DNA of 64,000 nt from Lophium mytilinum (lineage: Eukaryota). Numbering within the stretch: position 1 is the first letter of the stretch; every line of letters begins with the position of its first letter. The notes under the pieces are model-generated. The model did not search any database. It was not told the origin of the DNA and worked only from the letters and a program-made list of their open reading frames with translations. This document shows positions 36,805 to 53,294 of this stretch, one piece after another. A program made the translations under genes and the position numbers. The DNA is taken from positions 682,001 through 746,000 of the forward strand of contig MU004187.1 in assembly GCA_010093605.1 (NCBI GenBank). Reading direction: 5' to 3'.

Positions 36805-38361
36805 TCAAACGAGCGCGGCAAGGGCCATCGCGCCGGCGAAGAACGCAGCGGCAGCGGGAGTGGCCCTGGCGTTGGCAGCTCCAGTGAACTGGCTAGGGGC
36901 CGGGGCAGTGGAAGATGGGCTCGTGTAGACGGGGATAGACGCCGACGGGACGAAAGTCGGGGCGACGTAGGTAGAGGGAGAAGACGCAGGGGGAGGAACC
37001 ACGACCACGGGAGTGGATGCTGGAGGAGGCACCGGTGCGTAGGTAGATAGCGGAGGAACCACGACCGAGGGAGTGGATGCTGGAGGAGGTACCGGCGCGT
37101 AGGTTGATAGCGGAGGCACCACGACCGAGGGAGTGGATGCTGGAGGAGGCACCGGCGCGTAGGTGGATGGGGGAGCGACCGGGCTGGATGGAGGAGGAAC
37201 CGGGACGAGGGTAGTCGCCGGAGGCGCCGGGTAGCTAGTCGGGCAGACCGTGGTGTAGATGCTTGTAGTGACCGTGGTGACCGTGGAGGTGTACGTAGTG
37301 CCAGACGAAGTAATCGTGATGACGCTAGTGCAGGGAACGGTCACGGTAGTGACGGTGGTGATCGTGGTGTAGACGGTCTCCGGTGGCGGGGGAGGAGTGT
37401 AAACCGGGGTAGACTCGCAGGGAGTGGTGGACGGGGGTGGCGGGGGAGGAGTGTAGACCGAAGTAGGGTAAAAGGTCGAGCTTGGCGGTGGGGGAGGAGT
37501 GAACACGCTGGAGTTCCAGGGAATGGTGTACGGTGGTGGGGGAGGAGTGAAGATGCTGGTCGGGTAGTAGACTGAGCTGGGCGTAGAGCTGGGAGTCTCG
37601 CTGGACTCGCAAGGAGTCGATGAAGGAGGTGGAGGAGGGGTGTAGACCGAAGTGGGGTAGTAGGTCGTGCTTGGTGGAGGTGGGGGAGGAGTGCTGGTCT
37701 CGCAAGGAGTCGAGCTCTCCGGCGGTGGGGGAGGAGGAGTGTAAATGGAAGACGGGGATGAAGTCGGGTAGTAGACTGAGGTAGTGGTCTCGTTGCAAGG
37801 AGTCGTGTACGGGGGAGGTGGGGGAGGCGTGTACACGCTGGTCGGGTAGTAAACCGAGCTGGGCGTAGAGCTTGGGGTTTCCGAGGTCTCGCAAGGAGTG
37901 GAAGACGGAGGTGGGGGAGGAGTGTACACGCTGGTCGGGTAGTAGACCGAGCTAGAGCTCCAGGTCGTTGGGTAGTAGACTGAGCTCCAGGTCGTTGGGT
38001 AGTAGACCGAGCTGGGCGTAGAACTGGGAGTGGACGACGGAGTTGGCGTCGGGGTCTCGCTGCTTTCGCATGGAGTAGACGAGGGGGTCGGAGTGGGAGT
38101 GTAGACCGACGAAGGAGTCGAAGACGGGGTGTAGACTGGCGATGGAGTCTCGGATGTCTCACATGGCGTCGACGATGGAGTCGGCACGTAGACGGACGAA
38201 GGAGTCGGCGTTGGTGTCTCCGAAGACTCACACGGCGTAGTAGGATAACCTCCAGTTGGGTAAGGGTGCTCTCCTCCTGGGTAGTAGCCTTCGCCTCCAG
38301 CGATAGGGGTGGCAACAGCAACGCCCAGCAGGGCCAAAAGCGAAAGTGTTACTTTAACCAT
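36805..38361 (-). CDS. Secreted Pro/Ser/Thr-rich repetitive cell-wall protein, probably GPI-anchored
   Basis: Signal peptide MVKVTLSLLALLGVAVA; repeats STPCE(T/S), SVYYPT, YTPPPPP; C-terminal FTGAA followed by a hydrophobic tail typical of fungal GPI signals. Confidence 0.9.
   Translation of the reverse strand: MVKVTLSLLALLGVAVATPIAGGEGYYPGGEHPYPTGGYPTTPCESSETPTPTPSSVYVPTPSSTPCETSETPSPVYTPSSTPSSVYTPTPTPSSTPCESSETPTPTPSSTPSSTPSSVYYPTTWSSVYYPTTWSSSSVYYPTSVYTPPPPPSSTPCETSETPSSTPSSVYYPTSVYTPPPPPPYTTPCNETTTSVYYPTSSPSSIYTPPPPPPESSTPCETSTPPPPPPSTTYYPTSVYTPPPPPSSTPCESSETPSSTPSSVYYPTSIFTPPPPPYTIPWNSSVFTPPPPPSSTFYPTSVYTPPPPPPSTTPCESTPVYTPPPPPETVYTTITTVTTVTVPCTSVITITSSGTTYTSTVTTVTTSIYTTVCPTSYPAPPATTLVPVPPPSSPVAPPSTYAPVPPPASTPSVVVPPLSTYAPVPPPASTPSVVVPPLSTYAPVPPPASTPVVVVPPPASSPSTYVAPTFVPSASIPVYTSPSSTAPAPSQFTGAANARATPAAAAFFAGAMALAALV
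36984..37168 (-). repeat. 60-bp coding tandem repeat x ~3 (STYAPVPPPASTPSVVVPP)
   Basis: Lines 36961, 37021, 37081 and 37141 align in register with only a few substitutions. Confidence 0.9.
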
Positions 38362-41300
38362 GATGATGGATCACAACAATGTGAGTTGGAGTTGACTGCG
38401 ATTGAACGATGGTCGAGTCTGATATAAACGATGGAAACAGAAGAACCGTAGCGAGCGAGTTCTTGCTGGTTTGGGGGGTTGGGGGATGCGAACGGGTGGC
38501 TGGGTACCAAACAGATGCACTGGAGAAGAGCCTCAAATGTGGGAGGAGGTTGGCTCTATATGCACTTTGGAACCAGGCCAGGCAGGGCTCCGGATATCGG
38601 GCTGCCCCCGTGCTTGGAGCATGCTGCCGTGTTCAGGTTGCATGTGCCAAGGGAAGCTTGTGGGCTCTGACGTTGAGCCTCTGGTGAAGAAATAGTGATC
38701 TCCCTGGGTCCGGCTCCTTTGTGGAGGAGCTCCGGCATGACGGCCAGGCGCAAGCTGCCACATGGAGCGTAGGTTTCCGTGAGTACGGACAGAGCGGTCG
38801 TGGGTGCCCGGGCGGGTTGTGCTGGCGAGCGCGGGCCTCGTGGTGGTGAGAGTTCGTATCGATAGGCATAGGGCCAGGGGAGGATACGCTAGACTACTGC
38901 AGGCCGGCCGACGAACCAATTGCTGAGACAACGGTTGGCAGCCATGGCAACGCGGGCTGTAGGACGATGCATTGCGCAGGGATAGCGGCAGGTACTGGGT
39001 AGCGTTGCCTGACTATCGCCCTGCCCCTCACGCCAATTGCGCGGGAAAACCTGCATGGCCAGTCCCTGCGGCCTGCAAGCCCAATAAATAAACCACTCAT
39101 GAGATGCTGATGAAGAGGACATGGACTGAGGATGCTGGAGGCAGCAGAATCGAAGGAAATGCAGCACACTGACGCCGTACTCGCCAGCAAAACACACGAT
39201 AGGACAGCGCCGCTCGCTGCATGAATTTAATAGTTACCCAAAGCAGTCACCCTCTGTCGTGTCTGGCGGCGCCGCGCTGGCGATGATGCAACAGCCACCC
39301 ACCAGCAAACGGTCGGCTGGATCTACCCATGTCTCGCACAGTTCACTGGGAGACACGTGCCTAGCCTTGTTTTTCCTCGGTCTTCGGGTGGCTGAAGTAA
39401 AAATAGATAGATAGACGGGTCGATCTTTGCCGGCAAGTGACAGGTGACAGCACCGTTGGGCTGCCCTCGTCCACGACACCCATCACTGAAGCGTTCTGCG
39501 AGCAGCGATGGAGAAAGGAGGCCGGACAGGCGGTCAGGACAGGCACAGAAACCGCCTTTAGGCTCTGGTTGCTGTGCAACGCAGGCACTCCAGTCCGTCG
39601 AGCTGCAGGGCAGCACTGCTTCGACGGCCTCAGCTCCGGTGCACCATTCATCGGAGGCGGGCGGATCCAACATTCGACTCGACCTGCTGCGAGAGCCAGC
39701 CCCAGCGTCGCTTGACTGGTGAGGTTGCATGGCGGGTTTATCGGAAAGCAAGGTTCAGGGGCGTGCATGGAGAAGTGGAGAAGAAGAAGGCTGGAAGAGG
39801 CAGAGGGCGGGGACGCTGAGGTTGGTCCCAGCCCGAGCCCCCGCCGAGTGGCTAGCACTCGTTGGCTCTCACCCCTCGCCGAAGAAACACCATCGTCCGC
39901 CATCACGATGCATCGCTAGGCACTCCTTTTCCCTAGCACATCGCGGCACACCACGCTGCTGTTTTGTGTTCCTGCGTCCGTCGTTGACAACCATGGTACC
40001 GCAGGAACCCGTCGTTCCAAGTGACGAAATTTCAGGAGACACCTTCAGAATAAGTCAGTGAACGAGAATTCGGCGGCCACTCCGTCCTGCAGCTCTCCGC
40101 TCGCCGCAGAGGTACATCCGACACATGTCTCTCAGCTCAGCTCTTCGATTCGCGTGCCTGAGGGCATTTGTGGGTCGTTCCTCTGTCGGCACGAGCAGTG
40201 TACCCCTGTGATTCGTCGCATCGCACTGAAGACCACATCCCTGAGTTTAAAACATTCCGCTCTCGCACTCTGCTAGCAGGGATGATTTCTTCTGCTGCAT
40301 CATGCTCAGTCAGATCGGCCGTCGACAGACCAGGCTCTCCACTTGCAGAGTTCTTCATGACTTCTGCCGTGTGGACGCCAGCCCAGAACCTAGGCCACCC
40401 CGCAGGAGTCAAGGAGTCGGCGGTACCTTATCGCCTCCACCAGGTGATAATTGCTGACTCTGTGTGTGCCGAGCAGCTTTTCGACTCGTCAAAGCCGCCC
40501 GAAAAAAACAATACCTCAGAAACCTGTTTGCTGGCACTGGCTGCTGTTCGCCTTATTGAAATGCCTCTTCGGGTCATTTCCGGGCAACAGAATAGAATGC
40601 CAGTAGCTTGGCGCATTTTGTATTACAATGCCAGAAAACGCCATATAGACAATAAAGGACCGAGGCCATGCTAATACAGGCCTAGAAGCTAGCTTCTAGG
40701 CTTAATTAAGCACACCCCCCGTCCTCTACTATCTATAAGGCGTTTTCTAGCATTACATAACTATATATAGGCCTTAGCGTAGTATTAAACCTTAATTTTA
40801 TAATATATATAATTAGCCGCTGCCGGCGCACCTCTATATAATATAAGAAAATTAATAAAATTAGCCTAGTATACTCTAACTAAGGGAAAATAGCCTATAG
40901 GACTGTAAAAACGGCCTATATTCTCTAGTATTAGCATCTAAATATATAGAAATAGATAAAAACTCTATTTCTCTATTAAAAATTATCTAATTTTAATTAA
41001 AATTAAATAGTTAGAAAGCCTCTATACTTATACCTACTATATGTATTATACTCTATTTCTCTGCAGATTCTATACTTATTTCTAATAGTCGCCCTTTTAT
41101 CTAAATAGTAGTTACTAAATTACTTTCTTTTATACTATATAGGGCCTAATTACTTCTTCTTTAAAGGTAGAAGAGAGGTAGAACTTAGTAGAAGGTTATT
41201 AACTCTTATAGGCTATATTATATAATATTCTAGTAAGCCCTCTATAAGTATAGAGGCGTAGCTATTCCTCTATATATAGGTTTTATATATATAGCTGTAG

Positions 41301-41773
41301 TAGCTACCTACACGCCTACCTATAATATAGATAATAGCTATTATATAGTAGTAAGAAAACTAGTAATTTTAAAACTCTCTATAGGTGTATTTCTTTCTAT
41401 TAAGCCTTATAATATACACTATAGTATTAAAGTAATACTATACTATAGCCGCGTAGTTATAGTAATTAAATGCTATATATATATTTATCTAGTAGTAATA
41501 GCCTAAGGCCTTATAGAGGTTGCGCTTTAAAAGCTTCTACTTAAATAGTATAAAGAATAGAATATTACCCTATACTTTACCCGGCGGTAGCCTTATAAGC
41601 TTAATAGAATAAGCTATAGCTATAGTATATCTCTTAGCGCGTATCTCTATTACGCGGCCCTATAGCAATACTAAAAGGTGCAAAGTTAATAGCTCTTAGT
41701 TATTCCTAATTATTAAATTAAAGGACTTATTCGCGCTGCTTATAATATAGCCGAAGCGCATAGTAATAATATT

Positions 41774-44700
41774 AGGCAATAGAATAGAATACTAGTAGCT
41801 TAGCGTATTTTATATTATAATGCTAGAAAATACTATATAGATAATAAAGGACTAAGGCTATACTAATATAGGCCTAGAAGCTAGCTTCTAGGCTTAATTA
41901 AGTATACCCTCTATTCTCTACTATCTATAAGGTGTTTTCTAGTATTATATAACTATATATAGGCTTTAGTATAGTATTAAGGCCTTACTTTTATATATAG
42001 GCCTATATATAATATATAGCTTATTATACTACTAGTTATATTACTAGTATTCTTATAAGCTACTAGCCTATTAATACAGCCTTAAATATAGCAGGCTTCT
42101 AGCTGCATATTTTTAATAGATAGGCGCCTCTAAGGCCCTTCTAGAGGCGCTTAATAAGCGCCTAAACTATCTAAATAGGTAATAGATATATAGGTTAAGT
42201 TATTAAAAATATAGGTAAGCTGCCACGCTATAGAAAGCTATAGAGAAGTAGATTTAATAGCTTTATAGGCCTTATCTAGTTAGAAGAGCTCTAGACTATA
42301 TTTTATAGTAGCTATACTAAGAAATTATCTATCTATCTTTCTACACTATATTAGTAATAAAAAAGTAATAAAAAATTAATAGATTTTAATACTATAAAGC
42401 TATAAAAACTTACTATATAGAGGCCCTTCTTATGCCTTTTTAAAGGCCTTAATTTATTCTTTCTAGCTTATATAGCCTCTTATATAGCCTTACTATTATT
42501 CTATAGCCTTACTATTAAGCTTTATACTTTTTATTCTCTCTATTATTATTACTATAGAGTCCTCTAGTATTCCTTAGATTAGTAAGGCCTATAGTACCTT
42601 CTAGAAGATTAAGGAGATCTACTATAAGGTTACTATAGAGAAAGAATAGAGAATTAAGATTCTTATAAGTAATAGAACTTAAATTAACCTATAATATAGT
42701 ACTACTATGCTATACCTATAGTATCTCTATATAACTTAGTAAGTTAATAACACTATAGAGGTTTAAAAGCTTACTAATAAGTATTACTATATTAGCGCGC
42801 CCTCTCTAAAGTGTATAGAGCAGTTATAATTAATATACTTAGTAGAGAATCTCCCTCTTCTTAGCTTTATTACCTATAAGACGCTAATAGATAATATTTA
42901 GGCGCTGGCCTCTATATATCTAGAAGGCCTAATTAATAACTTCTAGGTGCGCCGGGCGTGCCTAATAATATATAGTAATAATAAGAGGTCTATAGAGAAT
43001 AACTATATAAAGATTCTAGAGTACTTAGAGCGCCTAGAGGTTAAAAATCCTAGTATTACTACTAATCTAGTCCTCTACCGCGGTGCCTTCTAGCGCGTCT
43101 TTATATACCCTAAGGAGAGTAGAACCTTTCTTATTTTTAGCCTTAACTAGCTTAGCTTTAATAGAATATATCTAAGAAATAGGTATAAGAATATAGTACT
43201 AATTATAATAGAAAGAGACTAGAATAATAAGGTTTATTTACTTACCTAGGCTATTATAGAGAGCAAGAATAATAAGACATAGGCATAGTTTATAAGGAAG
43301 CTAAAGAAAGCTCTACCGCAGCTTAATACGGCTGGAGTATAGACTATCTACTTATAAGTTTAATTTTTATTATTTATTAATAATTTTTAAGTGGATATCT
43401 ATGCATTTATTTATAGTAGGGATATTAAGTTAAAACGCGTTAATTTTAGTAAGAAATTATGTAGTTTATATATAAGGTTCTATTATAATAAATAATATAT
43501 AGATGTAAATAAAAATTATAATAGCCCCCTCTTAATTTCTATATACCTATTTATAATAGTATTTATACCTCTTAATTTCCTTCTATATACTTCTTAACGC
43601 CGCAGTTAATTTCTATACTAAATTTTATAGTTCCTGTAACTATACTATTCTTATTAATAGATCTATTAAAAATCTACCTACTTATACTATTTTTTTTATA
43701 GTAATTATAATAAAGGCCTCTAGAACACTATTAATAGCCTCTTTCCTTACTACTATAGTATCTACTGCGTTTAGCATCTATTAGAGAATATTAGGAAGCA
43801 CTATAGAACTACCTACTTAAAGCTCTTCTTTAAGCTTACTCTTACTGCTAACTAGGTTAAATTTAACGCCTTAATAGCTAAGATTATATTTCTTAGGCCT
43901 ACCGCCGCAGCCTATATTAAGGCTATAGACTTATACTAATAGGTAATAAAGAATATTATTACTATATACTTTAGCTATATTATAAGCGGCGCGAATAAGT
44001 CCTTTAATTTAATAATTAGGAATAACTAAGAGCTATTAACTTTGCACCTTTTAGTATTGCTATAGGGCCGCGTAATAGAGATGCGCGCTAAGAGATATAC
44101 TATAGCTATAGCTTATTCTATTAAGCTTATAAGGCTGCCGCCGGGTAAAGTATAGAGTAATATTCTATTCTTTATACTATTTAGGTAGAAGCTTTTAAAG
44201 CGTAACCTCTATAAGGCCTTAGACTATTACTACTAGATAAATATATATATAGTATTTAATTACTATAACTACACGGCTATAGTATAGTATTACTTTAACG
44301 CTATAGTGCATATTATAAGGCTTAATAGAAAGAAATACACCTATAGAGAGTTCTAAGATTACTAGTTTTCTTACTACTATATAATAGCTATTATCTATAT
44401 TATAGGCAGGCGTATAGGTAGCTACTGCGGCTATATATATAAAACCTATATATAGAGAAATAGCTACGCCTCTATACTTATAGAGGGCTTACTAGAATAT
44501 TATATAATATAGCCTATAAGAGTTAATAACCTTCTACTAAGTTTTATCTCTCTTCTACCTCTAAAGAAGAAGTAATTAGGCCCTATATAGTGTAAAAGAA
44601 AGTAATTTAGTAACCGCTATTTAGATAGAAGGGCGACTATTAGAAATAAGTATAGAATCTATAGAGAAATAGGGTATAATGCGCGTAGTAGGTATAAGTA

Positions 44701-45143
44701 TAAAGGCTTTCTAACTATTTAATTTTAATTAAAATTAGATAATTTTTAATAGAGAAATAGAGTTTTTATCTATTTCTATATATTTAGATGCTAATACTAG
44801 GGAATATAGGCCGTTTTTGCGGTTCTATAGGCTATTTTCCCTTAGTTAGAGTATACTAGGCTAGTTTTATTAATTTCCTTATATTATATAGAGGTGCGCC
44901 GGCAGCGGCTAATTATATATATTATAAAATTAAGGTTTAATACTACGCTAAGGCCTATATATAGTTATATAATACTAGAAAACACCTTATAGATAGTAGA
45001 GAATAGGGGGTATACTTAATTAAGCCTAGAAGCTAGCTTCTAGGCCTATATTAGTATAGCCTTAGTTCTTTATTATCTATATAGCGTTTTCTAGTATTAT
45101 AATATAAAATACGCTAAGCTACTAGTATTCTATTCTATTACCT
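41774..45143 (+). mobile_element. Mutator (MULE) DNA transposon, inner copy of the same family (3370 bp), opposite orientation
   Basis: RIP-mutated TIRs AGGCAATAG.. (41774) and ..CTATTACCT (45143); 9-bp TSD AATAATATT 41765-41773 / AATAATGTT 45144-45152; sequence is the reverse complement of the outer copy. Confidence 0.92.
42900..44410 (+). pseudogene. RIP-destroyed MULE transposase core (DDE region plus SWIM zinc finger) of the inner copy; bounds approximate
   Basis: Literal translation ERD*NNKVYLLT*AIIESKNNKT*A*F (~43211-43292), NKGL*N..FP..YCV*HLLEN (~43709-43790) and KYTYREF*DY*FSYYY (~44333-44380). Reversing C>T/G>A changes gives GRDxNNxxYLLAWAxVESExxxxWxWF, SDRDKGL..CxxH and CTCxxFQxxxxPCxH, which are MULE/SWIM motifs. 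Confidence 0.85.
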
Positions 45144-47729
45144 AATAATGTTCTTTATTACCTATTAGTGTAAGTCTATAGCCTTAATATAGGCTATAGT
45201 AGTAGGCCTAAGAAATATAATCTTAGCTATTAAGGCGTTAAATTTAACCTAGTTAGCGGCAAGGGTAAGCTTAAAGAAGAGCTTTAAGTAGGCAGTTCTA
45301 TAGTGCTTTCTAATATTCTCTAATAGATACTAAACGCAGTAGATACTATAGTAGTAAGAAAGAAGGCTATTAATAGTATTCTAGAGGCCTTTATTATAAT
45401 TACTATAAAAAAAATAGTATAAGTAGGTAGATTTTTAATAGATTTATTAATAAAAATAGTGTAGTTGCGGGGACTATAAAATTTAGTATAGAAATTAACT
45501 GCGGCGTTAAGGAGTATATAGAAGGAAATTAAGAGGTATAGATACTATTATAAACGGGCGTATAGAAATTAAGAGGGGGCTATTATAATTTTTATTTATA
45601 TCTATATATTATTTATTATAATAGAACCTTATGTATAAACTATATAATTTCTTACTAAAATTAACGCATTTTAACTTAATATCTCTACTATAAATAAATG
45701 CATAGATATCTACTTAAAAATTATTAATAAATAATAAAAATTAAACTTATAAGTAGATAGTCTATACTCCGGCTGTATTAAGCTATAGTAGAGCTTTCTT
45801 TAGCTTTCTTATAAACTACGCCTATATCTTATTATTCTTGCTCTCTATAATAGCCTAGGCAAGTAGATAGACCTTATTATTCTAGTCTCTTTCTATTATA
45901 ATTAGTACTATATTCTTATACCTATTTCTTAGGTATATTTTATTAAGGCCGAGCTAGTTAAAACTAAAGATAAGAAAGGTTCTACTCTTCTTAGAGTATA
46001 TAAAGACGCGCTAGAAGGCACTATAGTAGAGAACTAAATTAGTAGTAATACTAGAATTTTTAACCTCTAGGCGCTCTAAGTACTCTAGAATCTTTATATA
46101 GTTATTCTCTATAGACCTCTTATTATTGCTGCATATTATTAGGCGCGCCTAGCGCGCCTAGAAGTTATTAATTAGGCCTTCTAGGTATATAGAGGCTAGC
46201 ACCTAAATATTACCTATTAGCGTCTTATAGGTAATAGAGCTAAGAAAAGAAAGATTCTCTATTAAGTATATTAATCGCGACTACTCTATATACTTTAGAG
46301 GGGGCGCGCTAATATAGTAATACTTATTAGTAAGCTTTTAAACCTCTATAGTATTATTAACTTACTAAGTTATATAGAGACGCTATAGATATAGTATAGT
46401 AGCACTATATTATAGATTAATTTAAGTTCTATTACTTATAAGAATCTTAATTCTCTATCCTTTCTCTATAGTAACCTTATAGTAGATCTTCTTAATCTTC
46501 TAGAAGGTACTATAGGCCTTACTAACCTAAGAAATACTAGAGGACTCTATAGTAATAATAATAGAGAGAATAGAAAGTATAAAGCTTAATAGTAAGGCTA
46601 TAGAATAATAGTAAAGCTATATAAGAGGCTATATAAGCTAGAAAGAATAAATTAAGGCCTCTAAAAAGGTATAAAAAGGGCCTCTATATAGTAAGTTCTT
46701 ATAGCTTTATAGTATTAAAATCTATTAATTTTTTATTACTTTTTTATTACTAATATAGCGTAGAAAAATAGATAGATAATTCCTTAGTATAGCTACTATA
46801 AAATATAGTCTAGAGCTCTTCTAACTAGATAAGGCCTATAAAGCTATTAAATCTACTTCTCTATAGCTTTCTATAGTATAGTAGCTTACCTATATTCTTA
46901 ATAACTTAATCTATATATTTATTACCTATTTAGGTAGTTTAAGTACTTATTAAGCGCCTCTAGAAGAGCCTTAGAGGCGCCTATCTATTAGAAATATATA
47001 GCTAGAAGCCTACTACATTTAAGGCTATATTAATAGGCTAGTAGCTTATAAGAATACTAGTAATATAACTAGTAGTATAATAAGCTATATATTATATATA
47101 GGCCTATATATAAGAGTAAGGCCTTAATACTATACTAAGGCCTATATATAGTTATGTAATACTAGAAAACACCTTATAGATAGTAGAGAACGGGGGGTAT
47201 ACTTAATTAAGCCTAGAAGCTAGCTTCTAGGCCTATATTAGTATGGCCTCGGTCCTTTATTATCTATGTGGCGTTTTCTGGCATTATAATATGAAATGCG
47301 CCAAGCTACTGGCATTCTATTCTGTTGCCCGTCATTTCCTCTTGTTAGCTCGCCTTCTCGTATTCTTGCCACGCACTTTGGCATCTCTCCAGTCAGCTGT
47401 CATTTTTGTGGTTCTTATTCTTAGCTCAACAAGGCTGGCAGTCGATCGGAGCTCGTAAACATGCTTTTCCAGGCCCATGCAATTATTGTCTGTCTCCAAG
47501 ACTCCAAGGATGCTCGTTGGGCTGTTCTTTATCCCCACTTACCTTACCCTTCTCCTCCGCTCCAAGTCATTCGACCATCGTCATCGGTGTCTGTGTCTCT
47601 GGCCAGTGCTCGTAGAATCCATGCTGAACCCTCTTTTTTTGCATGCATCGCACGAACTGCGCAGATGGTACCTGCACCAGGAACTGCCGGACTCCCGGCG
47701 GGGAGCTCAGGGCAGATGCTCGCTATGCC

Positions 47730-49916
47730 TCAATCGTCATCATCACTGTCCGTCCCACTGTCCCAGCCTTCTTCATACTCCTCCGCAATCATAGCCAGCC
47801 CGTTCGAAATCGCTTCCCTCTCTTCCACACTCACCAACCGTCTCACAAGCTGCTCTGTAGCCCTCACCTGCTCAGCAACAGAAGCACACGTCGTCAAGCC
47901 CGTGTACACTGCTACCTTTTTAGCCTGACCATCGCCTACGTTGATGATGGATGGGAAGCTATCGAGAAGCGGGAACAGCAGCGAGGAAGAGTATCTGTAG
48001 CCGAGTTAGATCGTGAGTGAATGCCCAATCAAGTAGTGACCAAGATGTTGTAGATGCAGGTACCACGTAAGAATGTAGCCTGTAACCTCTGTCGACCGAC
48101 GGCCTCGCGCTCTACAAGGCTGTAACCAAGAAACAAGATATAAGACATACCTCTGAACAATTGGACCACTGTGAAACCTATCGTGCATGTCTCGACCCTC
48201 GCTTCCTTCAGCGATACTCCAAGCCCCTCTGCTCGACTCCGCCCGCCCGAAGATATGATCTTTCTTCCGCCGTGCACCGCGCTGTCGGACACCAGGTAAC
48301 TCCTTCGTCGATAAATCAGCATCGAAGTCATTGAGACGGTCGTCCTTAAAATCGGCCTCATCCTGACGTGTCAGCACCGCGCCGACCTTGTCAGCCTGCG
48401 CTGCCTCCGTCACGACTTTATCCTCCAAGACATCCGGGTCCGCAACACTGAACTCCAACTTCGCAATCCGCCTCTTCCCAGAATTGTTAATTGTTTCCTC
48501 AAGTTCGTTCAAGGACCCTCTCTGCCCGTCTCCCGCCCTTAGCCTCGAGGGCAGCGTCACACTCTCGAACGCCAGAGCATGGACTGCAGACGTCTCCCAC
48601 ATCGAGCTCGCGTCAAGCGACAAGTACGACGGCGTTTTCAACGGTGTGTTCGCGACGGGAATGTACACTGAGGCCTGTTCTGAGATTTCGTAGAGAGAGC
48701 GAGCAGAGTTGGCTAGGCGGGTCAATCGCTTCTCGCGGGAGACGGGTTCATCGCCGCCTTGCTCGAGGCCCCAGACCCAGATGCCTAATTTGCCGAACTC
48801 GTCGCGGAGGCGCTCTGTCCAGCGGGCTGTCCAGCCACCCCAAGCGTCGGTGACGGAGGCGAGGAGTTGGAGGCCCTGGAGGGAGTCGCATTCTTCTATG
48901 AAAGGGCGGAGGTCGCTGATTTGATTTGATCAGCTTTAGTTGAAGTGTGAAGTGATGGCGGAGTCAAAATGAAGCAGTGCCTATCCTCTGCTTTCTCTTT
49001 CTGTTTGGAAGAAAATGGTAGTTGTACTCACCGATCAAGTAAATCCTCCTCTCTGTCCAACGTCCCGAATAGATCTGCGCCCACATCCCACTTTTCCCAG
49101 GCTCTGTGAGTTGCATCTCCGACATCGAATTCAGATAGTTGGACCAGGGACTTTGGATGATAGTAAACGCGCGCATAGTCAGACCAGTACCGCACCGAAG
49201 CAGCCGTGAGCGGAGGTGGTGTTAGACCAGCATCAAGATGGACCTGATATGGGGAGGGCGGAATGGGCGGCGCGTGACGGATGATTGGGGGAGAGGACCT
49301 ATGTTTATAAAATCAAACCCATGCTTTCTATGAGGAACATATGAGTGCGGATGCTATCGATAAAGACCAGTTGATGATTTTGGCAAATGAAATAGATAAA
49401 CATCGTAGCCGGAAGACAATGAGAATAATCTCGACTTACCAAACACCCCTCCCACCCGTAGATCCCTCATCCTCAACTTCATAAAGCGCATTCACTTTCC
49501 TCAAGCTCCCAAACGAGCCCTTGAGATCATAAACTAGAGCGCGCGGTGTGAACGTCTCGGACCCATCGGGTGCGATGCCAGGCCGAAAGTGGATATCATG
49601 ATTGACTGGCGACTCTTCCTCGGGTGGGTATGTGAAGTATGATTCCTTTCATCGCCTTTTGTTAGAACGGTTTCGGAGAGAAGATGAATTTTGGAATTGA
49701 AGTGAATTGTGGAGGTGGATATAGAGTTGACAACGTGGTAAAAAAGTTTTGAGAAGTGCGTAGGGTCTGGTGACGCCCTCAATGGAAGAGATTTGCAGCT
49801 TATGAAAGACCGGGTAATGATAGTCGTGCGAATGGGGGACATACCTGTGTATTCCAGAAATGCGTCCCTAGATAGTTGGCCTGTTGCCCGAATTGGAGCG
49901 TCACTATTTCATGCAT
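47730..49916 (-). CDS. DML1: Misato/Dml1 tubulin-like mitochondrial distribution protein, 5 exons
   Basis: Exons 49916-49845, 49645-49440, 49298-49032, 48915-48151, 47994-47730 give [89 protein letters not shown]. Confidence 0.93.
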
Positions 49917-50545
49917 GGTGGGGGATGAGGTGGGGGAGTCTCCCGCTGGAGAGTAACTCTCGGCAAGCAAGATGCGATTTCGTAGTACTTGGTTAACAGC
50001 TAAGAGTACTTCTAGAGTTCTTGTGTCTGCTAGCTGTGAAGAGAGGAACCTTGTCTGGTGATGGATGGTGTGTTGTTATTGGTGCACATGTAGCAAAGAT
50101 GGTAGATAGTTCCTCATGTTCACGTGGGTTCGCGATCACATCGCAAATTTGCTATGCACGAACCTGAGATATTTACGCGCAACGGACGCATCGCGTCGCT
50201 TTATTATGAGCCGACTCTCATTATTGGTCTAATGACTCATTGCTCCTCTCCTTTCTCTTTTCTTTTCGGTAAGATCAAAGCATACGCCCCAGGCCATTGG
50301 ATCCAATGGCTATGAGTCTCCTGCACAGCAAATGAAGCCTCCCATATAGCAAATTCGCCGTCGCCAATTTTCAATGTACAAGAGACTTTCATGACTTACC
50401 TTCACCTTTGATCAGACTGTCAGGCCTGGTTTTCGACCTCACCTCATGCCCATCTCCATGCTATGCCAGCAACCAGTGTCGCTATGCCAAGTGGTCGCAG
50501 GTTCAAAGGCAAACTTGCCAGATCCCCACCGCTGAAGCAACACTA

Positions 50546-51421
50546 TCACCACCCTCTGCCCCTACCTCTACCCCTCCCAAATCCCCCTCCCCCAGGCGGC
50601 CCCTGCGGTACTTCACCCCTCCTCCACTCACCAGACGGCACACCTCCCCTCCCTTCGAACCTCGGTCCTCCCCTTCCCCTAAATCCGCCATAATCTCCCC
50701 TACCCCCAAACCCATTCTCCCTCGGTCCCATACCACCTCTTCCCCCATACCCTCCTCCTGACGGCCCGCGAAACGGCACACTCAACGGCGGCGGCGCAGC
50801 GGCAACCTCTCCACCCGGCAGCGGCGGGAATACAGCACACGAGACATAGTCCCCAATCACGAACCTCACGCTCGCAAGACTCTTGTCCGCGTCTCCCTCT
50901 AGCCTGCTTAACACCTCTTTCACATCCTCTTTTGCGCCGTTCTCAGTCTCATTCCCGTTCTGCGCGTCTGCCGCGTCGAGGTCCTCGTAGGTTGCGTTTC
51001 CGGCGCCGACGATGATGCTTCCGAGTTCCTTAGCTAGGTAGCGCCCAGGGCCGGGGCGGTTCGCGTCTTTGGTGTCGGGGAAGACGAGGCGGAATGCGAG
51101 GCGCGTGCCTACGGCTGGTGAGGGGAGGAGGGAGGGTAGCGCGGTGAGTAGGAGGTGGGTGAGCTCCTTGAGGGTACAGGTGGGCCAGGTGTAGATTTGG
51201 AGGTGGGGTGGGCTTTGGTTGTTTGGGGAGAATTCCTCGAGGCTGTGATGGGTTTAGATGGGTTCGTATTGAATTAAGGATGGATTGAGCGCTCTGGGTA
51301 GCAATAGGGAAAGTGAATGAGGATCTGAGACATACCGGTGGAAAGTGCCGCTTCTATAGAATAGCTTGAGTAGGAAGGGTGTGGTAGTCTGGCGGTCGAC
51401 CTTGGGTGTTGGAGCTGCCAT
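50546..51421 (-). CDS. SAP18: Sin3-associated polypeptide SAP18 with RGG-rich C-terminus, 2 exons
   Basis: VDRQTTTPFLLKLFYRSGTFHR|LEEF..LQIYTWPTCTLKEL..RFVIGDYVSCAVFPP; intron 51335-51243. Confidence 0.9.
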
Positions 51422-52135
51422 TGTGCTGATTGATAGGTATTTCTATGCGGTCAGTTATAAGAAAGACATGCGCTGCATAGGAAGAGCAATCGCAGATGTA
51501 GTAGGTTGACGTGAATTTGAATGCGAAAGGAAGCTTGACGCTTTGCGACGCGCCAAAGATGTTGGAAGCTCTTCGGCTCCACCTTGTTCTCGGGAGCTGG
51601 TAAACTGGCCAGGCTTGGCATAGATAGTTCGAACTTATGCGCCGCACGTGACTGTAGCTCTATTATAACTAGGCCCACCACAGCTCAAAATGAGTGCTCG
51701 ATTATAAAGGTACAAACTTACACGCTTGATGTAACACATTCTTTCGAGGATAGCAATTGATTCTATCTATGATGCTGTCAGCTATCAAAGCAGTTGTGAA
51801 TCTTGCGCTAAAACAGTCACTTTAAAGCAACGAACTACTAGCACACCAGTGCTCCGTCCGGGAGAAATTGGATACTTATGTGGACTGTTTTGCCATTGTT
51901 GCCTTAATACATTTAGACAAGATTGAATCGGACAAATTGAGGAGCTACCTCCTACGCTTTTATCGTGCGGAGTTACAGGCGCGACCGTGGTTGTGCATGC
52001 CAAGCGGGCCCCAATTTACAAGCTCCCTTCCTCACCTCCGCAACCAAATCTCTAACCTGCATCACTGAACAGACAACAAACCTCACGCCATCACGAACCC
52101 CTCCTCTTCTCTTCGCCCTCTTACCACCCCCAAAT

Positions 52136-53294
52136 ATGGACTTCGCCGCCCTCCTCGCCTCCCAAATCGCCGCCTCATCCCCCAACCCCACTGCCTCCAC
52201 CGCCGCCTCCTCCACCCCCGCGCCGAAAAAGTACCTCAAGCGCTCCGAGATCGAAGCCCAGCGACAAGCCGCCTACCTCGCCGAAGAAGACGCCGCCGAA
52301 GCCGCGCGCCTCGCCAAACTCCGCCAGAAGCGCAAATTCGAAGACGAGGAGGTCGAGCGCGAAGCCGCGCGCAAAGAGAAGCGGCGGCGGCTCGCCGAAG
52401 AATCGCGGGCGCGGCGCGAAGCCGAAGAAGCAGAGGCGGAACGACAGCGGCGAAAGCGACTCGGGCTGCCAGATCTCCCCTCGAAGTCGAAAGATGGGGA
52501 GGGTCCGATGCTGTTGCTAGAGGGCGAGGGAGATATCGAGGATGCAGAGCTGGTGGAGCAGCTGCGGGAGCTGGGACAGCCGGCGAGGGTGTTTGGGGAG
52601 AGCCATCGGCAGCGGTTGAAGCGGTATTGGAGGGTTAGTGGGAAGGGGCCGGCGGCGGTGGTGATGACCGATGGGCCGATTCCGACGTCGCTGAAGCTGG
52701 TGTCGGAGGTGGAGATGAAGGTTGAGGCGAAGGTGCCGAAGGATGTGGAAGGGAAGAAGTTCCTGTTTAGGCAACTGGCGTCGTATTTCACGATGGTGCT
52801 GAAGGAGTGGGAGGTGGCGCTGGCGCATCGCCCGGAGAGCGTGCAGGTCAGCTACCAGGGAAAGCAGGCGTACAATGCTATGGTCCAAGCTAGGGAGAAC
52901 ATGCGGCCGCTGTTCAAGAAGCTGGAGAAGGGAGAGATTGAGGATGGCATTCTTGAGCCGGTAGTCGAGATCGTTGTTGCAGCACAGCAGCGAAGATATG
53001 TGGATGCAAACGATGGTTATTTGACCCTCAGCATCGGAAAAGCGTAAGTTCCCTTCCTTTGTACTCGCCACAAGAGTTAAGAGCTAATTGTTTGTTAGTG
53101 CATGGCCTATTGGAGTCACCATGGTTGGTATCCACGAGCGGTCCGCGCGAGAGAAGTTGCACGAGAGCGACAAAGGCGCCGCGCACATCATGAGCGACGA
53201 GGTTACACGGAAGTATCTGCAGAGCATCAAACGCTGTCTCAGCTTTGCACAGACGAGATGGCCGCCAGATGATCAACTGCAGTTGATGGGCTAA
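52136..53294 (+). CDS. PRP18: Pre-mRNA splicing factor Prp18, 2 exons
   Basis: MDFAALL.., PRP4-like LRELGQPARVFGE..RLKRY, ANDGYLTLSIGKA|AWPIGVTMVGIHERSAREK..AHIMSDEVTRKYLQSIKR; intron 53044-53098. Confidence 0.95.

Follow-up and report, generated by a model that had tools for sequence, protein, structure and literature searches.

A Mutator-like element nested in inverted orientation within a copy of itself and marked by repeat-induced point mutation in Lophium mytilinum

Introduction

Why should one transposon locus carry four terminal inverted repeats (TIRs) where a single element needs only two? The question is raised by a 6.7-kb block of low GC content in a 64,000-nucleotide stretch of DNA from the fungus Lophium mytilinum (assembly GCA_010093605.1, contig MU004187.1, positions 682,001 to 746,000 of the forward strand), hereafter called the window, in whose coordinates all positions are given. 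An initial annotation, made from the sequence alone, had described the block as a Mutator element inserted into a copy of itself. Mutator-like elements (MULEs) are described as ubiquitous in fungi (PMC5751038). Our analysis leads us to propose, with a probability of roughly 0.8, that a 3370-bp autonomous-type MULE received an inverted insertion of its own kind and that both copies were thereafter mutated by repeat-induced point mutation (RIP) in this filamentous fungus.

Results

The outer element spans 40582-47330 (6749 bp). Reading of the junctions places its first letters, GGGCAACAGAATAGAATGCC, at 40582 and its last base at 47330, and it is flanked by identical 9-bp target-site duplications (TSDs), GTCATTTCC, at 40573-40581 and 47331-47339. 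Within it lies a complete 3370-bp element at 41774-45143, inverted relative to the outer copy, with its transposase frame on the plus strand. The outer copy, whose remnant runs on the minus strand, is thereby divided into a left segment of 1192 bp (40582-41773), carrying the transposase remnant from codon 727 on, downstream of the insertion point, and a right segment of 2178 bp (45153-47330), carrying the remnant upstream of that point. A second 9-bp pair flanks the inner copy: AATAATATT at 41765-41773, which belongs to the outer element, and AATAATGTT at 45144-45152, which differs from it by one G/A transition. The uninterrupted target occurs once in the inner copy, at 43952-43960 (codons 727-729), and its reverse complement is AATAATATT.

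When a script cut the inner copy, together with one TSD, out of the outer span, the arithmetic closed exactly (6749 - 3370 - 9 = 3370). The reconstructed outer copy aligns with the inner copy without a gap over 3370 bp at 93.6% identity, and all 216 differences among the 3370 positions are transitions (216/216), with no transversions and no indels. Two interleaved long inverted repeats were recovered by a repeat finder, one pairing 41775-43961 with 45143-47329 (2187 nt, 93% complementary) and the other pairing 40583-41773 with 43952-45142 (1191 nt, 94% complementary); the blastn E value was 0.0 for both long arms. When the element was compared by blastn with the whole 64-kb window, no match fell outside 40582-47330. 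A nested structure of this kind is far beyond chance.

The initial annotation thus stands in its geometry: once the junctions were read, every coordinate that it had given for the four TIR ends and both 9-bp TSD pairs held, as did the interleaved repeats, the closing arithmetic (outer remainder and inner copy being equal in length and aligning gap-free) and the single uninterrupted target at 43952-43960. Its claim of inverted self-insertion is borne out by the 9-bp duplication of outer-element sequence around the inner copy and by the single occurrence of that 9-mer in the intact copy. Since the TSD has the length typical of the element and the inner tips end exactly at the TIR termini, the inner copy is best explained by ordinary transposition and not by recombination.

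All four termini share a 208-bp TIR, past which the two ends of an element diverge. The outer TIRs lie at 40582-40789 (plus strand, 208 bp), where the first ~100 bp are almost free of RIP, and at 47123-47330 (minus strand, 208 bp), where there is little RIP close to the tip. The inner TIRs, at 41774-41981 (plus strand, the homologue of the outer right end, GC 0.274) and 44936-45143 (minus strand, the homologue of the outer left end), are both heavily mutated by RIP. Across TIR columns 1-208 there are 39 variable columns, all of them transitions, and the five non-transition columns all fall past the TIR, from column 209 on. GC content in the first 226 nt is 0.39 and 0.37 at the outer tips (0.367-0.394) and 0.27 at both inner tips.

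A palindrome of about 130 bp is present inside each 208-bp TIR (40627-40754, 41816-41949, 44968-45101 and 47157-47286). The arms, 64-67 nt long and 75-79% complementary, meet without a spacer at a centre reading CTAGAAGCTAGCTTCTAG; in the outer left TIR the centre falls at about 40691, with 49 of 65 positions matched. A AATGCCAGAAAACGCC-like motif recurs in the arms and is similar to the extreme tip of the element as well. These palindromes may serve as putative paired transposase-binding sites.

To which superfamily does the element belong? The inner copy was translated in all six frames, with stops read through as X. A Pfam MULE match was obtained in one of the six, frame +1, at codons 462-515 (E=2.7e-4, 21.7 bits), and the other five yielded nothing in Pfam but a chance-level RecQ5 match (E=0.28). 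The conserved transposase remnant occupies codons 329-778 of frame +1 (42758-44107, plus strand) and in the inner copy contains 30 in-frame stops (14 TAA and 16 TAG). A phmmer search with this frame against 1.84 billion representative proteins returned 173 matches at E<=1e-3, eight at E<=1e-10 and none at E<=1e-30, the best relatives being only 31-33% identical over the mutated frame. We scanned 20 of the best 42 relatives with Pfam: the MULE domain PF10551 scored above cutoff in all 20, Transposase_mut (PF00872) in 15, the SWIM finger in 14 and the MuDR DNA-binding domain in three. By BLASTP, codons 329-517 matched P0001 (E=8e-29, 32% identity), and codons 411-514 and 643-778 matched P0002 (E=1e-13 and 3e-18, respectively). 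The X positions of the remnant face W or Q in the relatives, as expected if TGG, CAA and CAG codons became stops.

A C-x2-H motif follows the second catalytic D; the inner copy reads C-V-stop-H at its codons 665-668 and the outer copy C-V-stop-Y, where P0002 has C-C-W-H. The three positions that we take to be the DDE catalytic triad, from the alignment to P0002 and the triad familiar from MULEs, are occupied in both copies by N, N and K. Mutator elements are marked by TSDs of about 9 bp (8-11), and the locus holds two independent 9-bp TSDs, one perfect and one with a single transition; to these are added long TIRs (208 bp in both copies) and, by way of the relatives, a MULE/Transposase_mut DDE domain. 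Together, the 9-bp TSDs, the long TIRs and the MULE-type transposase remnant support the assignment of the element to the Mutator superfamily, as initially annotated.

Between codons 514 and 643 the frame holds 128 residues versus 12 in P0002. The excess coincides with an interval of 348 nt (43354-43701, plus strand) that reads ATAAGT...TTTTTTATAG both there and in the matching stretch of the outer copy, beginning with ATAAGT and ending in a T-run followed by TATAG. Removing these 348 nt accounts for the excess exactly and keeps the frame. The interval is probably an intron in the MULE domain whose GT donor has had its G mutated by RIP.

What did the insertion do to the outer transposase? It fell at codons 727-729 of the conserved frame, in a part with homology to MULE proteins. 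The C-x2-H motif precedes this site, and the position matching the E of the relatives' 'SE.FN' motif follows it by about 13 codons. This placement supports the view that the inner copy split the outer transposase within its catalytic region, between C-x2-H and the presumed catalytic E, and agrees with the disruption proposed at the outset.

The composition of the block differs sharply from that of its flanks. GC content is 0.29 in the block versus 0.52-0.57 in the flanks, TpA/ApT is 1.68 versus 0.73-0.89, and (CpA+TpG)/(ApC+GpT) is 0.22-0.29 versus 1.06-1.22; GC and both indices have regained flank values by about 100-200 bp from each border. The rest of the window is free of RIP-like DNA. One 1-kb bin, at 37001, was flagged as RIP-like by the script and was rejected as a false positive, having a GC content of 0.62 and lying within a Ser/Thr/Pro-rich repeat gene. 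With divergence by transitions only, a CpA bias together with shifted indices, and restriction to duplicated DNA, the block bears the sequence signature by which it is assigned to RIP.

The four TIRs allow the context preference of the mutations to be read directly. Within 200 bp of its two ends, the inner copy has acquired 27 + 20 = 47 derived transitions relative to the outer copy, which has none of its own there. With the outer tips serving as the ancestral sequence, we scored changes in the inner tips and found mutation at 30 of 33 CpA sites (91%), 3 of 43 CpC sites (7%) and 1 of 65 CpT sites (1.5%). CpG was the second-best context here (12/20, 60%), unlike in Neurospora, where RIP ranks CpT above CpG. 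The initial annotation had called the locus an ideal RIP substrate, which understates the case: RIP is already near saturation in both copies.

When did RIP act? The two copies have 28 stops in common, with two private to the inner copy and three to the outer (28/33 shared). Both copies retain CpA/TpG at 18 sites and just one of them does so at 92, and TpA stands in both copies at 663 sites versus 397 for ApT. By a hand estimate, subtracting about 30 tip sites from the 92 leaves about 62 one-copy sites, for which a mutation probability of p=0.9 predicts about 280-310 doubly mutated sites; rough as it is, this estimate is close to the TpA excess of 266. At a CpA saturation of about 0.9, independently mutated copies would share most of their changes, so RIP before the insertion, though some is possible, is not needed to explain the sharing. 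Furthermore, the inner tips had to be recognizable to the transposase at the time of insertion, and their mutations must be later than nesting and made in place. RIP therefore acted in place, after nesting.

Contigs from two public runs, X1 and X2, were compared with 39000-48900. The runs come from one sample in one study, contain 0.66 and 0.59 of the words sampled, respectively, and were available as contigs; the sample may be the assembly's own source, and the runs do not count as independent support. Sixteen of the 433 pieces were listed. The contigs cover all 30 bins of the region, with a summed depth of 114-145 in the flanks and 51-1420 in the element bins, figures that are depths and not copy numbers. 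Wherever contig letters differ from the window, at 49 places in X1 and 57 in X2, the differences are all transitions. Contigs fitting the outer tips stop at 40582 or at 47330-47333 and then run about 255 letters into at least four unrelated flanks. It follows that the family has several copies, that RIP has also affected it at other sites in the genome and that possible donors exist; the search for further copies that the initial annotation had proposed is answered by these foreign flanks.

No contig joint in X1 or X2 matches the empty site or a single-copy allele, for which a joint between 41773 and 45153 is expected. The initial annotation had raised hairpin dsRNA and inversions as possible products of the repeats; the search for public runs found no RNA run, and no inversion isomer was seen in these contigs. 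Two joints were found, 41383 to 45370 and 44529 to 44728, with short sides of only 20-23 letters. Inside the element, 42475-42528 contains short local repeats, CTATAGCCTTACTATTA-like and spaced by 19 nt; a single base, at 42499, is missing from some contigs, and 42475-42528 is also where several contigs end. This stretch is either a small tandem-repeat spot in the element or a point where copies differ.

To the right of the element, genes run from 47730 to 53044. Nearest is a DML1/Misato-like gene on the minus strand, represented by an open reading frame (ORF) with a Tubulin_3 (Misato/DML1) domain (48926..48006, Pfam E=2.6e-38). Its probable last exon, reached after a short interval with CTAAC and CAG through a presumed exon join, encodes an acidic tail (...GTDSDDDD) followed by a TGA stop at 47730-47732. 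Provided that this last exon is right, the stop lies 400 bp from the element end, as the initial annotation had it (~400 bp). Further right, a SAP18-like gene occupies 50546-51250 on the minus strand, and a PRP18-like gene that contains a PRP4 motif follows at 51941-53044 on the plus strand.

On the left, the nearest clear gene is an ORF of 521 codons for a Ser/Thr/Pro-rich repeat protein (38370..36805, minus strand), whose start is about 2.2 kb from the element and which matched no Pfam family. The protein, whose N-terminus looks like a signal peptide and whose C-terminus is hydrophobic, contains many near-repeats (…SSTPCE[ST]SETP…VYYPTSVYTPPPPP…), and this ORF accounts for a strong GC skew at 36.7-38.5 kb that reaches 0.55. 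Among the flank ORFs compared with Pfam, 11 of 14 had no family. The reconstructed empty site is crossed by three stop-to-stop ORFs of 68-142 aa; the one compared with Pfam, at 40162-40671, matched no family. We treat the insertion site as intergenic, between the 3' end of the DML1-like gene and the region upstream of the Ser/Thr/Pro-rich gene.

Discussion

How did this locus arise? In the history that we favor, an element would have entered intergenic DNA by cut-and-paste transposition, making the GTCATTTCC duplication. A near-identical copy of the family, donated by the sister chromatid or by another locus, would then have entered the transposase gene of the first copy in the opposite orientation, 1192 bp from its left end. 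This second insertion would have made its own 9-bp TSD and placed the inner copy between the two D positions and the presumed catalytic E. During one or more sexual cycles, RIP would then have recognized the interleaved inverted repeats, now a 6.7-kb block, and driven both copies near saturation by C-to-T changes at CpA and, to a lesser degree, at CpG. The outcome would be about 30 stops per copy and a change in all three presumed catalytic codons, and at either edge of the block only the outermost ~200 bp would have escaped.

Several results weigh against this history or parts of it. The element's own Pfam MULE score is below the gathering cutoff (21.7 versus 27.6 bits), and no SWIM finger (PF04434) or N-terminal DNA-binding domain was found in any of the six frames. 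The C-terminal SWIM zinc finger, which many Mutator members have but not all, may have been erased by RIP or may lie in another frame. Among the 16 of 433 contig pieces listed, none spans the inner junctions at 41773/41774 or 45143/45144, and the flank contigs reach only 27-29 bases into the element. Finally, an order in which nesting came first and all RIP later may not hold for the interior, where shared mutations could partly predate the insertion.

Could the interior have been mutated before nesting, so that a dead, non-autonomous copy moved in trans into another dead copy and only the changes in the inner tips came later? The present outer copy shows that a RIP-killed interior with near-intact TIR tips can exist, and other genomic copies with tip-like ends exist as well; the sharing of 28 of the 33 stops would also follow. 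However, the saturation at the tips (30/33 CpA), measured independently of the interior, suffices to explain that sharing by convergence. Movement in trans would also need an intact source of transposase, and none was seen, the closest of the 1.84 billion representatives being 31-33% identical. We regard RIP before nesting as unlikely.

The other explanations dispense with the transposition of one copy into the other. Two or more dispersed copies of the repeat might have been mis-joined into an apparent nest during assembly, and the short-read contigs, which break inside the element and of which none among the pieces listed bridges the inner junctions, would be in keeping with this, as would the multi-copy nature of the family. 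A mis-join, however, would not yield a direct duplication matching the outer TSD exactly in its length of 9 bp, nor would it hit a site that is single in the other copy with arithmetic closing to the base, and the 216 private differences along the copies amount to the sequence of two separate molecules, arranged in one fixed order. Because of the TSD, the closing arithmetic and these private differences, evidence internal to the locus and not taken from reads, we reject an artefact as very improbable. Still harder to credit is a recombination or inversion between two neighboring copies. Inverted repeats can recombine, and plant MULEs with extra TIRs have been judged not to be nested in the available part of one report (PMC3310237), but those cases are described there as lacking a TSD at the internal TIRs, whereas the internal copy here has one of 9 bp (PMC3310237). 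Both inner tips moreover end exactly at the TIR terminus, and recombination predicts neither a TSD nor exact ends. Inverted self-insertion of a MULE followed by RIP thus remains our preferred account.

Is such a structure known elsewhere? In a double Ds, one Ds element lies inside an identical copy in inverted orientation, and the same holds of the element described here, which is inserted into its own copy and inverted. Nested Ds elements and chromosome-breaking double Ds elements are described in maize (PMC3260210). With a DNA transposon inside a like element and four termini at one locus, double Ds is the closest structural analogue in the literature at hand (PMC3260210). The two differ in that Ds belongs to the hAT superfamily and makes 8-bp TSDs, whereas the present element is a MULE with 9-bp TSDs, from a fungus, and both of its copies are RIP-inactivated. 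Any double-Ds-like breakage activity of the four termini has probably been lost, the inner tips being mutated at 47 positions in 400 bp. Self-insertions in which a cut-and-paste element hits a resident copy of the same element are also recorded, in the available portions of the reports, for P{lacW} in Drosophila (PMC4744444) and for the rice miniature inverted-repeat transposable element (MITE) families Castaway and Gaijin (PMC5172404). Those are artificial constructs or tiny non-coding MITEs, whereas here a full-length coding element lies in a full-length coding element with both TSDs kept.

Among fungal MULEs, the available text of one report gives VdMULE1-3 of Verticillium dahliae as 3.4-3.6 kb long and Hop1 of Fusarium oxysporum as an active reference (PMC3441728). 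The element shares with them its size class, a single MULE-domain transposase gene, which in some has introns, and TIRs with a TSD (PMC3441728). By that description, in which the TIR table gives figures of 73-86 for the VdMULEs, the 208-bp palindromic TIR found here appears longer (PMC3441728). The plant MULEs with multiple long TIRs resemble the locus in having more than one TIR pair; as far as the accessible account goes, theirs are tandem TIRs with no internal TSD and were judged not to be nested insertions, whereas the internal pair here has a TSD and bounds a whole second element (PMC3310237).

The RIP pattern likewise resembles that reported for linked repeats in Neurospora crassa, as far as the available text describes it, in its restriction to transitions, its preference for CpA, its confinement to homologous blocks and the mutation of inter-repeat DNA (bioRxiv 10.1101/115501). 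That report describes mutation of the DNA between closely placed repeats as well, by a heterochromatin-related route, and the heavier mutation of the interior repeat units at our locus fits this description (bioRxiv 10.1101/115501).

What, then, does the locus add? Self-insertion, nested transposons and RIP are all known, and no new mechanism is involved. In the available part of one survey of rice and maize, only 7-9% of coding MULEs lie within other transposons (PMC3903597). The arrangement seen here, in which one full-length MULE sits in another full-length copy and neither TSD has been lost, is an uncommon specimen, a rarity that we judged by keyword search of the open-access literature and that carries no claim that fungal examples are unpublished. 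The locus is a clean record of MULE transposition, self-insertion and RIP together, and it shows that a coding MULE can insert into a member of its own family. It also contains its own internal control: the same 208-bp TIR is present at four places, of which the interior pair is RIP-saturated and the edge pair nearly untouched. This control gives both a context-matched measure of RIP preference and the sharpness with which RIP falls off at a repeat border.

A more far-reaching possibility, to which we give little credence, is that RIP here stops about 200 bp short of the edge of the repeat block and so leaves RIP-killed MULEs with transposition-competent termini. The four-terminus composite might then be movable in trans or might undergo alternative transposition in the manner of a double Ds, breaking or inverting the chromosome beside the DML1-like gene. 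If this were true, other dead copies could also move in trans, and the locus would be a natural reporter of RIP homology sensing, comparing the edge of a repeat cluster with its interior in identical sequence.

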